Source of the DNA: Rikenella microfusus
Lineage (GTDB): Bacteria; Bacteroidota; Bacteroidia; Bacteroidales; DYQK01
DNA length: 22,265 nt
Reading direction: 5' to 3'
Assembly (NCBI GenBank): GCA_020719385.1
Contig: DYQK01000047.1
Location: 1,287 to 23,551 of the forward strand
Positions within the stretch are counted from its first letter, which is position 1; each line of letters opens with the position of its first letter. The notes beneath the pieces are model-generated. The model was given only the letters and a program-made list of their open reading frames with translations. It did no database searches and was not told the origin of the DNA. The translations under genes and the position numbers were made by a program. Below are positions 17,749 to 20,840 of the stretch, in pieces.

Positions 17749-17782
17749 AAAAATAAAATATTTCTGCAATTTTGCAAAAATT
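17749..17782. repeat. 34-bp direct repeat (left copy) flanking the MTase/ATPase cassette: aaaaataaaaTatttctgcaattttgcaaaaatT
   Basis: 33/34 identical to 20807-20840; abuts the stop codon of the last cassette gene; contains the near-palindrome tgcaattttgca. Confidence 0.6.
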
Positions 17783-18158
17783 AAAATTTTATCTCGTTGC
17801 CTTCTAACAAATCAATTTTATAATTATCCCAAAATTCCTTCTGTTTTTCTTGATTTGCCGTGCTGGCTGCGGGACAAACAGGAATATTTTGAAAACAAAT
17901 TAAGACTTTTACTGCGAATTGTTCGAAATCAATGCGTTTTTTAAACTCTTTGATTGTTGATTCTAATTGATTAATTGCGTTTTTTCGATGACTCGCCCGT
18001 TGTTTTAACTTTTTTACATTTTTAATTTCGACAAAATAAAATTTTTTTTCCTCGAATAAAGCACAATCGCAGCGTTTTTTGTCTTTAGAATCGAAAACGC
18101 ATTGGTCAATGGCTAAAAATATTATATTTTTTTTATAAGAATTAACAATTTTTAACAC
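17781..18158 (-). CDS. Small protein (125 aa from GTG) with a PD-(D/E)xK-like nuclease motif; probably the C-terminal part of a ~166-aa gene cut by an in-frame TGA
   Basis: IIFLAIDQCVFD...CDCALFEEKKFYFVEIK fits a D...E-x-K pattern. Upstream in the same frame are a TGA (18201-18203) and then MKTKIKNAFPNVSEKCFIVVSKKKFEV from an ATG at 18282-18284 that overlaps the ATPase stop as ATGA. Confidence 0.4.
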   Translation of the reverse strand: MLKIVNSYKKNIIFLAIDQCVFDSKDKKRCDCALFEEKKFYFVEIKNVKKLKQRASHRKNAINQLESTIKEFKKRIDFEQFAVKVLICFQNIPVCPAASTANQEKQKEFWDNYKIDLLEGNEIKF

Positions 18159-18280
18159 TCTATCATTGTCAACAACTTCGCATTTGCCGTTTTCTGTATC
18201 TCAAACTTCAAATTTTTTTTTCGAAACAACAATAAAGCATTTTTCAGAAACATTCGGAAACGCATTTTTTATTTTTGTCT

Positions 18281-19225
18281 TCATTTCGATTTTTTGTAAA
18301 TATTCATTAATTTCGAAAAATCGGCATTAATAATTTCTGACGCAATATCAAGTTCTGTTTCGCTAATTAATTTTGTTTTCGGATTAAAAACCTGTTTAAC
18401 TTTGCCCTTCGCAACGTGATACGCAATAAAATTTTCGGGAAGAATACGAAATTCTGAAGGAATAATTTGTGAAAGTTCATTTTCGAACTCTTTAGTTTCG
18501 ATTTGCCCCGCGAAAAGCAAATTATTTAACGAAGTTAAAACGTAAGGACTGTGCGTAGTTATAACCAAATGATTATTTTCATTCGCACATTTTGCCAAAA
18601 AACTTATTAATTCATATTGCATTTTGGGGTAAATATTCAATTCGGGCTCTTCGACAATGAAAGTTTTGCCCATATTTTGCTTCGAAAAATATTCTATCAC
18701 CAAAAATAACGGCACAACAGACTGAAAACCACTTGCCGACTCCGACAAACTTAACATTTTATTTTTATTTTTTATCAAATCTTGACCGTTGTTGTAAAAA
18801 TATTGAATATTTAAAAATTTTATTGATGTTTCATTAATTTCTTGACGTGCTTTTTGATAATATGTGCCAAATTGAGTTACCGATTTGGGCAAAGTTAAAC
18901 TATTATTCATAAATTCGATGGCTGCATTATTCAAAACCGAGACTAAAAAACGTTCCGCAGGAATATAAATCGAAGGAAACAAAGTTTTTTCACAATTTAG
19001 TTCTGTTTTTGGTTGCAGATAATTCTGAATATTATATTTTTTTAATGATTTTTCGAAATTTGTTTGATTCGAATTAATAAATTCCTCATCATTAAACATT
19101 GCAATAAGTTTTGCAATTGTACTTTTGCCAGCGGCTTGTTCACCAATTAAAATTGTAATTGGTTTAATTTCAATATTTGCCTCTTTGATGGGACCAAAAT
19201 TTTTTATTTGCAACGTTGTTAACAT
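18281..19225 (-). CDS. ABC-type (AAA_21/AAA_15-like, OLD/RecF-like) ATPase, 314 aa
   Basis: Walker A GEQAAGKST; signature-like LSLSESASGFQS; Walker B TFIVEEPELNIYP; H-loop HLVITTHSPYVL. Confidence 0.75.
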   Translation of the reverse strand: MLTTLQIKNFGPIKEANIEIKPITILIGEQAAGKSTIAKLIAMFNDEEFINSNQTNFEKSLKKYNIQNYLQPKTELNCEKTLFPSIYIPAERFLVSVLNNAAIEFMNNSLTLPKSVTQFGTYYQKARQEINETSIKFLNIQYFYNNGQDLIKNKNKMLSLSESASGFQSVVPLFLVIEYFSKQNMGKTFIVEEPELNIYPKMQYELISFLAKCANENNHLVITTHSPYVLTSLNNLLFAGQIETKEFENELSQIIPSEFRILPENFIAYHVAKGKVKQVFNPKTKLISETELDIASEIINADFSKLMNIYKKSK

Positions 19226-19242
19226 ATTTTTTTGTTTAAAAA

Positions 19243-20001
19243 TTAATTTTTCTCAAAAAGTAAAATTGGATTTATTTTAAACTGCAACATTTTGGCTGTT
19301 TCTCTGCCTCCATCGCCGCCTTTTCGCTGCATTGTGATTTTCCCAATTTTTAAACTGCCTTGTTTTGATATTTCGACATTACCTGCACCAAAAAAATTTA
19401 AAACATAATTAATATCTCGAATAATCCATTCAGGTTTTTCGTTTTTCGTTTTCCAAATTACCATCAGCCAAGATGCAGAAAATTCGTCATTTCCTTTCAA
19501 CAAATCGCTAATGATTAAAATTTTATTTGTCTCAAAAAAATTTATAATCGATTTTTGAATTTCGTCATCCATTTCGTTAAAAAACATTCTTCGTTTGTCC
19601 CGAACATTTAGGTTTTGAGGAGGAATTTCACCTGTAAAAAGTTTTAATGCCGTAGCAATTTTTTCAGGAATATTCCACATTTCGACATATTTATCAACTT
19701 TTCTCTTATCAATTTGGTTAAAACCACTTGGATTCGTAACAAGTTTTATTGACAAATTTTCGATTCCAATTGTTTTTTTGAAAAAAATAGTAACTTGAAC
19801 TTGCACATCTGCTTTGTGATGTCCTGAAATTAAAATTGCAAGCACATTTTCGATTTCTGAAATTTGATAATTCATTGAAATTAACCAATTTTGTGCATCA
19901 GAATCGTTTTTCCAATTATTCAATTTTTCGACAATATCTTTTTCGTTTGCAAAACCACTTTTGGCAGTTTGTGAACCAAGCAAAATTAAATTTCTGTTCA
20001 T
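19243..20001 (-). CDS. Uncharacterised 252-aa protein immediately downstream of the MTase; candidate restriction endonuclease or specificity partner
   Basis: Its start codon (19999-20001) abuts the MTase stop (20002-20004), and there are 17 nt to the ATPase gene. I recognise no motif; the call is by position only. Confidence 0.35.
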   Translation of the reverse strand: MNRNLILLGSQTAKSGFANEKDIVEKLNNWKNDSDAQNWLISMNYQISEIENVLAILISGHHKADVQVQVTIFFKKTIGIENLSIKLVTNPSGFNQIDKRKVDKYVEMWNIPEKIATALKLFTGEIPPQNLNVRDKRRMFFNEMDDEIQKSIINFFETNKILIISDLLKGNDEFSASWLMVIWKTKNEKPEWIIRDINYVLNFFGAGNVEISKQGSLKIGKITMQRKGGDGGRETAKMLQFKINPILLFEKN

Positions 20002-20784
20002 TTATTTCAAAGTTAAAGTTTGCAAATAAGGTTTAATTCGTTGATATGCAATTTCGACATATTCTGTTGAAATTTCTGAACCAAGCCATTTTCGATTCAA
20101 TAAAATTGCGGCTTTGGCTGTTGTGCCGCTGCCCATAAAACAGTCATAAACTAAATCATTTTCGTTAGTCCACGTTTTTATTTGGTCAATAACGAGTTGT
20201 TCGGGGAAAATGGCAGGATGTTGATACGCAATATTGTCTTTTGTCGAAATTCCGCCGCCGATGGAATAAAAAAATACATTTCCCACTTTCTTTTCTGTTG
20301 TTCTTTCGATTTTTTTGTAGTTTAATTCGCCGTTTTTACCTCGATTTTTCATATTTGCCATTCCGTTATAACGACAATGTTCTGTCAACGGATTAAAAGT
20401 TTTTGGGGAATCTTTCGAAAAACAAAACATATATTCAAAATGTTGATGATAACGTTTTCCTGCTGTCGGCATCGGATTATTTTTGTAATAAATCATTGTG
20501 TCGTGCAAATTAAACCCAATTTTCATAAAAAATAACGCTTGTTTGAACGAAGTGCCTGTTTCACTGCCGTTTTTTGTCGCATCAGCAACTACCCAAATAA
20601 CAATTCCACCGTTTTTAGTTACTCGAAATAATTCGTTGACAATTTTTTCAAATTCGAAATAAAAACCATTATAATTTCTTAAATCGTCATAAGGAGGCGA
20701 AGTAATGGTTAAATCAACGAAATTATCGGGCATTTGCGACATTGTTATCAAGCAATTTTCGTTATAAATTTTGTTTATTTCCAT
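20002..20784 (-). CDS. Beta-class DNA methyltransferase (N6-adenine or N4-cytosine), 260 aa
   Basis: Motif IV DLTITSPPYDD near the N-terminus and motif I VYDCFMGSGTTAKAA near the C-terminus, i.e. beta-class circular permutation. Size and order match small type II MTases such as the DpnA/MjaIII class. Confidence 0.85.
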   Translation of the reverse strand: MEINKIYNENCLITMSQMPDNFVDLTITSPPYDDLRNYNGFYFEFEKIVNELFRVTKNGGIVIWVVADATKNGSETGTSFKQALFFMKIGFNLHDTMIYYKNNPMPTAGKRYHQHFEYMFCFSKDSPKTFNPLTEHCRYNGMANMKNRGKNGELNYKKIERTTEKKVGNVFFYSIGGGISTKDNIAYQHPAIFPEQLVIDQIKTWTNENDLVYDCFMGSGTTAKAAILLNRKWLGSEISTEYVEIAYQRIKPYLQTLTLK

Positions 20785-20806
20785 ATTTTTTCGTTAAATT
20801 TTTTAC

Positions 20807-20840
20807 AAAAATAAAACATTTCTGCAATTTTGCAAAAATG
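20807..20840. repeat. 34-bp direct repeat (right copy), inside the canonical promoter of the MTase operon
   Basis: On the minus strand TTTG-caaaattgcagaaatgtttt-TATTTTTG (TTTG-N20-TAnnTTTG) lies 27 nt upstream of the MTase ATG. Confidence 0.6.

Follow-up and report, generated by a model that had tools for sequence, protein, structure and literature searches.

A two-module defence operon between clpX and an S46 peptidase gene, bracketed by a terminator-like direct repeat: a candidate restriction-modification insertion with long target duplication

Introduction

How does an operon of defence genes come to lie between two housekeeping genes, with near-identical sequence at either end? The question is raised by a stretch of DNA of 22,265 nucleotides (nt) from contig DYQK01000047.1, called the window in the following, in which four minus-strand genes stand between clpX and the gene of an S46 dipeptidyl peptidase and are bracketed by two copies of a 33-nt direct repeat. 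An original prediction, made from the letters of the window, had described this block as a defence islet that was integrated by recombination at, or by duplication of, the promoter of the peptidase gene. Together with 5.4 kb of extra sequence (L165:1-5433), the sequence from the source organism amounts to 27.7 kb in total.

We lean towards the reading that a 3.0-kb operon of two defence modules was inserted into the clpX-S46 spacer by insertion of a restriction-modification (RM) unit with long target duplication, by which a spacer stretch of 33 nt (possibly about 68 nt) came to stand on both sides. The evidence for insertion is indirect and threefold: the operon lies in an invariant stretch amid varying flanks, its RM module belongs to a family that is mobile elsewhere, and its endonuclease is up to 76% identical to proteins in unrelated lineages, whereas the S46 peptidase of the host reaches at most 57% identity to anything. 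Insertion of RM units with long target duplication was reportedly described by Nobusato et al. 2000 (Gene 259:99). In the parts of their article drawn on here, Furuta, Abe & Kobayashi 2010 (NAR 38:2428; PMC2853133) distinguish three classes of repeat-flanked RM units, attributed to site-specific recombination, to long target duplication and to chance insertion between repeats; repeat-flanked RM units, the type of islet originally proposed, are thus a described class. For long target duplication the same parts name an endonuclease and a methyltransferase inside, an insert of <20 kb, a repeat of >30 bp and, in addition, another genome in which the site is empty. At our locus, homologues of both enzymes lie inside a block of about 3.0 kb without mobile-element genes, and the repeat, at 33 nt, is longer than 30 bp; judged from its sequence, the locus is a probable new example of this class.

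The repeat and the genes that it encloses

The sequence at 17749-17781 (AAAAATAAAATATTTCTGCAATTTTGCAAAAAT) recurs at 20807-20839 with 32 of 33 positions identical, the sole mismatch being T against C at 17759/20817, and a 21-nt core is exact in both copies. An identity of 33/34 had been claimed before; the near-identical repeat is real, but over those 34 nt the last base differs too, giving 32/34, and 32/33 is the best description. That such near-identity is unlikely by chance was confirmed, since dinucleotide-preserving shuffles of the window yielded no match of the repeat in 100 shuffles. A search allowing up to 5 mismatches in 33 covered the window, the extra 5.4 kb, the organism's remaining assemblies and some 2.2 Mb from other loci (about 2.2 Mb), and it brought up no third copy; a common intergenic element, which the original prediction had itself named as contrary to its proposal, would have to have its further copies outside the 27.7 kb. 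The 21-nt core had no match in an exact search of IMG/VR, and an Rfam search with the window repeat returned sub-threshold noise and no structured-element match. The features of the locus, in the direction of transcription, are the following.

20863-22146, minus strand: clpX, housekeeping gene of the upstream flank (NCBIfam ClpX equivalog, 2e-179; Pfam zf-C4_ClpX and AAA_2)
20807-20839, minus strand: right repeat copy (shuffles, exact core; terminator-like site 20844-20813; fold -14.8 kcal/mol)
20806-20836, minus strand: promoter-like TTTG-N20-TATTTTTG (pattern enrichment; overlaps the right copy; -7 box ends 21 nt before the ATG of the methyltransferase gene)
20002-20784, minus strand: beta-class DNA methyltransferase (Pfam N6_N4_Mtase, 6.8e-41; PADLOC methyltransferase models, up to 4.6e-84)
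19243-20001, minus strand: Type IIP endonuclease of the R.HinP1I family (Pfam R-HINP1I, PF11463, 4.5e-75; PADLOC REase_II, 1.2e-93; PDB 1YNM, 9e-81)
18281-19225, minus strand: ABC-type ATPase, PADLOC PDC-M29A (1.1e-43; Pfam AAA_15, 9.9e-26, and AAA_21, 1.8e-15)
17781-18284, minus strand: gene of a small, predicted PD-(D/E)xK-type nuclease, PADLOC PDC-M29B (3.7e-21, residues 14-166)
17749-17781, minus strand: left repeat copy (shuffles, exact core; fold -11.7 kcal/mol; begins within the stop codon of the small gene)
17713-17748, minus strand: putative promoter region of the peptidase gene itself (TATTTTTG as -7 box at 17727-17734, 28 nt before the ATG; holds a 21-nt block absent from the right junction)
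15545-17698, minus strand: S46 (Dpp7-like) dipeptidyl peptidase, housekeeping gene of the downstream flank (Pfam Peptidase_S46, 1e-246)

All open reading frames (ORFs) between the repeat copies, four genes in about 3.0 kb, lie on the minus strand, and the tight packing noted before was seen at each junction: the methyltransferase gene abuts the endonuclease gene, a gap of 17 nt precedes the ATPase gene, and the latter shares an ATGA overlap with the small gene. The NCBIfam Dpp7 model matches the S46 peptidase with an E value of 1.6e-239 and 797 bits, under the 1200-bit cut-off of the model. Domain searches of the cassette, the window and the extra 5.4 kb revealed neither integrase nor transposase domains; with the gene identities agreeing and no recognisable mobility gene, the notion of a defence islet between clpX and the S46 peptidase gene stands.

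Terminator and promoter signals at the two junctions

Read on the minus strand, the right copy consists of AAAACATTTTTGCA-AAAT-TGCAGAAATGTTTT followed by ATTTTTG, that is, a 14-bp hairpin with a T-run, which starts 18 nt after the clpX stop codon (z = -4.9 for its fold) and which a terminator scan marked as terminator-like at 20844-20813. The left copy, which starts in the small gene's stop codon, retains the same inner 9-bp stem within an extended stem, again followed by a T-run (z = -3.5). A similar long AT-rich hairpin terminator was marked by the terminator scan at the end of the S46 gene (15528-15495). From these patterns, the right copy would read as the terminator of clpX and the left copy as that of the inserted operon.

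The pattern TTTG-N17-23-TAnnTTTG is the Bacteroidota-type promoter consensus. It occurs 14 times in the window against 3.2 expected and is properly placed upstream of five other starts, namely those of a 113-aa (amino acid) gene, HPF, the tRNA cluster (two copies) and Rrf2. The two copies at the tRNA cluster belong to a tandem promoter-like duplication (10867-10939 and 10957-11029; 88% identity, 90-nt period), each copy of which carries TTTG-N-TATCTTTG; two tandem tRNA-Tyr(GTA) genes lie at 11187-11270 and 11296-11379. At the right repeat copy, TTTG-N20-TATTTTTG is a putative active promoter. The earlier view of this copy as the cassette's own promoter is therefore right as far as the enriched pattern goes, but the repeat is also a terminator-like hairpin and hence more than a promoter. 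A duplication of the peptidase promoter is not supported: the part that is clearly present twice is the hairpin and T-run of the clpX terminator, and the -7 box of the peptidase gene (17727-17734) lies outside the 33-nt repeat.

If the operon was inserted with target duplication, the duplicated stretch would be the intrinsic-terminator hairpin of clpX with its T-run. The upstream copy would still terminate clpX, while its 5' arm would give the -33 TTTG and its T-run most of the TAnnTTTG -7 box driving the inserted operon; the downstream copy would begin at the last stop codon of the operon and terminate it before the peptidase's own promoter. The target would thus be a combined terminator and promoter, of which the incoming genes would gain both functions with neither housekeeping gene losing its signals. 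Recombination between the repeats would allow later loss or amplification of the cassette, loss being opposed by post-segregational killing from the RM pair.

The restriction-modification pair

In the methyltransferase, motif IV (TSPPY) is N-terminal and motif I (FMGSGTT) C-terminal, which is the beta-class order and, with the N6_N4_Mtase match, agrees with the class assigned to it originally. Its nearest PDB matches are M.MboIIA and N4-cytosine methyltransferases. The SPPY motif marks N4-cytosine amino-methyltransferases, and the enzyme is probably of the N4-cytosine (m4C) type.

The 252-aa product of the adjoining gene (19243-20001) had been called unknown; Pfam, PADLOC and PDB 1YNM all identify it as a restriction endonuclease of the R.HinP1I family, and it aligns with 1YNM end to end, with 48% identity over 245 residues. 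Six residues (E18, D62, K83, Q93, K96 and K223) are invariant in the endonuclease and its 119 closest homologues, and Q93, K96 and K223 are the residues that read GCGC in HinP1I (PMC7026639). Because the catalytic and the GCGC-reading residues are conserved, a specificity for GCGC is strongly suggested, with the difference that the catalytic Q81 of HinP1I is replaced by S in the whole subfamily of the window endonuclease (120/120).

GCGC is depleted ninefold in the 27.7 kb (5 observed, 44 expected), and it is not alone: GATC (2 vs 55), CCGG (3 vs 28), GGCC (3 vs 21), CATG (14 vs 47) and CTAG (2 vs 12) are rare as well, with TCGA, ACGT, GTAC and AATT at expectation. This avoidance of palindromes points to long exposure to several restriction systems with four-base sites and not only to the GCGC system found here.

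Homologues 63-76% identical to the endonuclease all follow a methyltransferase of about 226-272 aa from the same Pfam family, their other neighbours being unrelated; no ATPase/nuclease pair lay beside close endonuclease homologues at the loci examined, and in other phyla the order of methyltransferase and endonuclease (M-R) is conserved without the ATPase pair. A module with a 65% identical endonuclease (P0176) occurs as a 98-100% identical block of about 1.84-2.0 kb in at least five different contexts; the RM module family is demonstrably mobile elsewhere. A search of plasmids gave distant matches only. On the Spiroplasma citri plasmid pSciBLHMB-2 (L173, CP047439.1 52829-54598), a HinP1I-family endonuclease of 55% identity has a C5-cytosine methyltransferase (dcm) as its partner. 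The family is thus found with a C5 partner on the plasmid and with an N4/N6-type partner here, and therefore with alternative protective methyltransferases.

The ATPase/nuclease pair

The ATPase carries a Walker A motif (GEQAAGKST) and a Walker B motif (FIVEEPE), and its AAA_15 and AAA_21 matches support the ABC-type assignment made before; weaker matches are to the AriA, PtuA and GajA models. The gene of its partner, when translated from the ATGA overlap, runs into an in-frame TGA at 18201-18203 (codon 28), present in all three assemblies that cover this codon, where homologues have Y, F or A; the longest intact ORF encodes 125 aa from a GTG start at 18158. Twelve homologues align over the full length, with D60 and E86 invariant and K88 nearly so. 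A PDB sequence search with the small nuclease gave no match; its fold was examined by a structural search with a model of a 51% identical homologue, and this modelling supports a PD-(D/E)xK fold and motif. The small PD-(D/E)xK-like protein of the original prediction is thus consistent with the D60/E86/K88 motif and the PDC-M29B match, but its gene is interrupted. In the alignment of the PDC-M29B family (A2), four cysteines are invariant (C16, C62, C72 and C74) and one nearly so (C35), a set that suggests a metal or Fe-S site.

An exhaustive profile search returned 921 cluster representatives of the PDC-M29B family at 50% clustering. Since nearly all of the 150 representatives listed are full length (about 165-180 aa), the N-terminal 45 residues belong to the family, and a 125-aa product from the GTG would lack this conserved N-terminus. 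Reassignment of TGA was considered and rejected: the tRNA-Trp has the anticodon CCA, and TGA ends the genes of the ATPase and of a GT2 glycosyltransferase. Most simply, the nuclease gene is a pseudogene, and the second module is probably inactive because the nonsense codon is found in all three covering assemblies. As for membership in PDC-M29, the models of both components are matched by adjacent genes joined by the ATGA overlap, only one of which is intact. A literature search for PDC-M29 found no mention in the searchable library. To our knowledge, PDC systems are predicted candidates without experimental proof; here, one such candidate appears to decay next to an intact RM pair.

The idea of one four-gene methyltransferase/ATPase cassette can therefore not be upheld. 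M-R pairs occur without the ATPase pair, a PDC-M29-like pair occurs alone, without RM genes, at another locus (L171), and because each pair is found elsewhere without the other, the cassette is made up of two independent two-gene defence modules in one operon; a single conserved set of four genes was rejected. Repeats flanking M-R or ATPase pairs were looked for in three other genomes (L166, L168 and L171) and not found.

Strains, empty sites and composition

The cassette is present in all four other assemblies of the locus (JGI 3300000230, NCBI GCA_973320375.1, Logan SRR1559353 and SRR1560849). Assemblies of the organism differ at 37 sites in 16.7 kb, none of which falls in 17402-21046, the longest invariant stretch, containing the cassette and both repeats. 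That the cassette should contain no variable site has a probability of 5e-4 for independent sites and of 7e-3 once clustered sites are merged. This invariance could be due to a recent gene-specific sweep, or it could be an artefact of related assemblies. Outside the source organism, tblastn did not find the cassette among the fetched loci. The best identity of the S46 peptidase was 55% in GTDB genomes, 52% in JGI metagenomes and 57% among 5.8 billion proteins, and with clpX and the four cassette proteins as tblastn queries, neither clpX nor cassette genes were detected near S46 at any of 160 loci of relatives.

Several findings weigh against insertion with target duplication. An empty site with a single repeat copy was sought in related genomes, among cluster members and by exact-protein look-ups, and none was found; insertion is inferred only, because no cassette-free allele or single-copy relative turned up. 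The stretch free of variable sites rests on few related metagenome assemblies, which may share reads. The cassette does not look foreign: its GC content (0.29-0.33) and its GC content at third codon positions (GC3; 0.24-0.30) lie inside the range of host genes, and GATC, CCGG, GCGC, GGCC and CATG together occur in it 0 times against about 18 expected, so that it must have resided long in the lineage or in a very similar donor; both findings speak against a recent import from a distant donor. A foreign composition was accordingly rejected. The functions of the promoter and of the terminators are read from patterns in the DNA, and the search for further repeat copies covered 27.7 kb of the genome only, so that the hairpin could be a dispersed element. 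Of the islet originally thought to have been integrated by recombination or duplication, the repeat-flanked defence genes are confirmed, but their composition is not foreign and no empty site was found.

The length of the duplication has to be seen in the same light. In an alignment of the two spacers, the similarity runs past the 33 nt, 20792-20806 on the right resembling 17713-17727 on the left if a 21-nt extra block on the left is allowed for; these 21 nt sit between two TTTTATTTTT decamers. The extended part (TTTTATTTTTG, then C or T, then AAAAAATTTAAC) is 23/24 identical, and the whole span would be about 47 nt on the right and 68 nt on the left, the two differing by the 21-nt indel. A homology of the left copy and its flank to the cassette promoter, as originally proposed, agrees with this continuation, but the 24-mer is specific only in part. 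Further promoters of the window match it at 19-20 of 24 positions, so that it is partly generic promoter consensus, which also counts against the duplication and makes the extension a weak diagnostic. The sequence agrees equally with a duplication of 33 nt, in which the first base of the insert completed the -7 box, and with one of about 68 nt, after which slippage would have deleted 21 nt from the upstream copy and created a good -33/-7 spacing there. Removal of one period of 3058 bp, that is, one copy and the cassette, leaves a plausible spacer of 106 bp, in line with the roughly 106 bp foreseen, but the deletion named for it (17783-20806, 3024 bp) would leave tandem copies.

With these points taken into account, we infer from sequence a specificity for GCGC with m4C modification, and a duplication made by insertion. 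The most economical account is that of a defence islet which circulated within the lineage or among its close relatives, its present allele having spread recently in the sampled population.

Alternative explanations

The hairpin might instead be a member of a dispersed terminator or REP-like family, the cassette having landed between existing copies or having come in by recombination at them, which Furuta et al. (PMC2853133) class as 'chance insertion between repeated sequences'; as a variant, a terminator/promoter segment could have been duplicated after the insertion, under selection for expression. We consider this unlikely, but it is the alternative that deserves most attention. The window has AT-rich hairpin terminators at other places too, several promoters share the 19-20/24 consensus with the extended repeat, and the host-like composition of the cassette leaves time for later rearrangement. 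The duplication at 10867-10939/10957-11029 has no cassette inside; promoter segments can therefore duplicate in this genome without insertion. Yet the 27.7 kb hold no third copy even at up to 5 mismatches, both copies lie exactly at the borders of the cassette, the left one starting inside its last stop codon, and an identity of 32/33 indicates a recent common origin of these two copies. Another possibility is that the four genes are old residents and the repeat a cis-regulatory element common to both sites, its copies kept similar by selection or gene conversion; an operator TGCA-N4-TGCA that co-regulates the operon and the peptidase gene would be one example. The perfect short palindrome TGCAAAATTGCA within the repeat would suit such an element, as would the host-like composition and palindrome avoidance of the cassette and its presence in every sampled strain. 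We regard it as improbable, as the identity also covers the T-run and positions outside the palindrome, the left copy follows the operon and stands 50 nt upstream of the peptidase -7 box, which it does not include, the RM module is mobile elsewhere, clpX and S46 are adjacent at none of the 160 relatives' loci, and the cassette is free of variable sites while its flanks vary.

Finally, the hairpins could be the recombination sites of a mobile cassette, either as miniature attC-like sites of an integron or as IS200/IS605-style (PATE-like) ends moved in trans. Both hairpins mark the borders of the cassette and are directly oriented on one strand, homologous M-R blocks are identical in different contexts and are bounded elsewhere by long imperfect palindromes (..TAACAAG to ..GTTATAC) as integron attC sites are, and one module (L167) lies between two near-identical attC-type repeats of about 86 nt. 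But the window hairpin, with its 32 nt and 4-nt loop, is well under attC size, AAC...GTT ends are missing from the left copy, the homology extends asymmetrically over the inner stem and 11 nt 3' of it, there are two copies only and no Rfam match, and the cassette, the window and the extra 5.4 kb are devoid of integrase and transposase domains; we hold such sites to be highly improbable. Integron cassettes are recognised by an attC of at least about 55 nt, R''/L''-L'/R' arms, a GTTRRRY core and an integrase or attC array nearby. Compared by size, core-site features and gene content (that is, not by an attC covariance model), the window repeats are of a different kind. Nothing supports an IS200/IS605-like hairpin-ended element mobilised in trans, and neither a Y1 HUH transposase gene nor a further hairpin-bounded copy was found in the 27.7 kb. 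More speculative still is a scheme in which the 33-nt terminator hairpin itself is the recombination site of a hitherto unrecognised, hairpin-targeting capture mechanism of this Bacteroidota-like lineage (miniature attC-like, or HUH-type in trans). Such a mechanism would place defence operons that have no promoter of their own after the terminator of one gene and ahead of the promoter of the next, and would restore the hairpin at either end; to this we give very little credence. Insertion with long target duplication remains the reading that we favour.

The integron-like features of related modules are worth recording in their own right. P0176-type modules (at L180:2915-4942 and at L181, L182, L184, L185, L186, L187 and L189) have a sharp right end, ...CCACACCGTTA followed by TA (the boundary being GTTA/TA), and are preceded by imperfect palindromes of 150-180 nt running from ..TAACAAG to ..GTTATAC; these bounding palindromes (..TAACAAG...GCCGTTATAC) are attC-like, and by its sequence this type of M-R module appears to travel as an integron gene cassette. 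In L167, a direct repeat of about 86 nt (3357-3442 / 5703-5788; 2 mismatches in the 41-nt core tested) flanks an M...R module with two extra small ORFs between M and R. It starts with TAACA, ends with GTCGTT and forms a long imperfect hairpin; an Rfam search with it gave no match. Its two copies are probably attC sites of a chromosomal integron array, and with these ends and the long hairpin, a target duplication was rejected for this repeat.

Other features of the sequence

The left edge of the window contains a 79-nt direct repeat (3-81 / 726-804, 77% identity) in a region of higher GC. Between 999 and 7743 on the minus strand lie four ORFs (589, 403, 113 and 446 aa) without a Pfam match, whose GC (0.26-0.33) and GC3 (down to 0.16) are lower than those of the cassette. 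The plus-strand gene at 7840-10308 encodes an 822-aa protein with a major-vault-protein shoulder and repeat domains (PF11978, 1.5e-27; PF17795, 6.7e-8), a domain set that is unusual for a bacterium and eukaryote-like. Past the right end of the window, upstream of and divergent from clpX (L165:2274-5402), a 561-aa NACHT protein and a 479-aa pentatricopeptide (PPR) protein (PPR_2, 4.3e-54) are encoded; PPR proteins are rare in bacteria. The PPR and vault-like proteins together are a hint of a host-associated lifestyle.

Comparison with known systems

The ATPase/nuclease pair resembles PDC-M29 and, more broadly, pairs of an ABC-type ATPase and a nuclease (Septu PtuAB, PARIS AriAB, Gabija GajA) in its adjacent genes with stop/start overlap and in its weaker matches to the AriA, PtuA and GajA models; it differs from PDC-M29 in the interruption of the nuclease gene at codon 28. 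With integron gene cassettes carrying defence genes, the block has in common the geometry of promoterless genes between one hairpin and the next, and close M-R homologues are cassette-like, but the window repeats depart from attC in size and in core-site features and the 27.7 kb hold no integron integrase.

The endonuclease is like R.HinP1I (G^CGC; 1YNM) in its end-to-end alignment and its conserved key residues, and in addition there is an adjacent methyltransferase and a host depleted of GCGC. Its partner is a beta-class amino-methyltransferase with SPPY, in contrast to the C5-cytosine dcm beside the homologue on the Spiroplasma plasmid, so that this subfamily of HinP1I-type endonucleases offers a case of partner swapping in RM systems, with an N4-type enzyme in place of the C5 enzyme.

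The closest likeness is to RM units with long target duplication as they are described in the parts of PMC2853133 drawn on here. There, the repeats often span start or stop sites while the target gene stays intact, and a virus-like life cycle is proposed, of which double-strand breaks made by the RM system and repeat-mediated amplification form part. Our locus agrees in being a block of <20 kb without integrase or transposase, with intact housekeeping neighbours and a direct repeat of more than 30 bp (33 nt here, 46-47 bp in the cases of their Table 2) that touches a stop codon; the class itself is defined by comparison with an empty site, and the likeness drawn here comes from the first three features named for it and from the geometry. 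Current concepts would not be changed by this case, as restriction genes settling via such repeats are already known; its value is that of a clean annotated example, which, if true, adds a repeat-flanked RM insertion free of mobility genes from a deeply branching, uncultured, AT-rich Bacteroidota-like organism, a lineage outside the genera named in those parts of the article. It differs from the units described there in the extra non-RM defence pair within the block and in its target, a terminator/promoter hairpin that appears to supply the expression signals of the insert.

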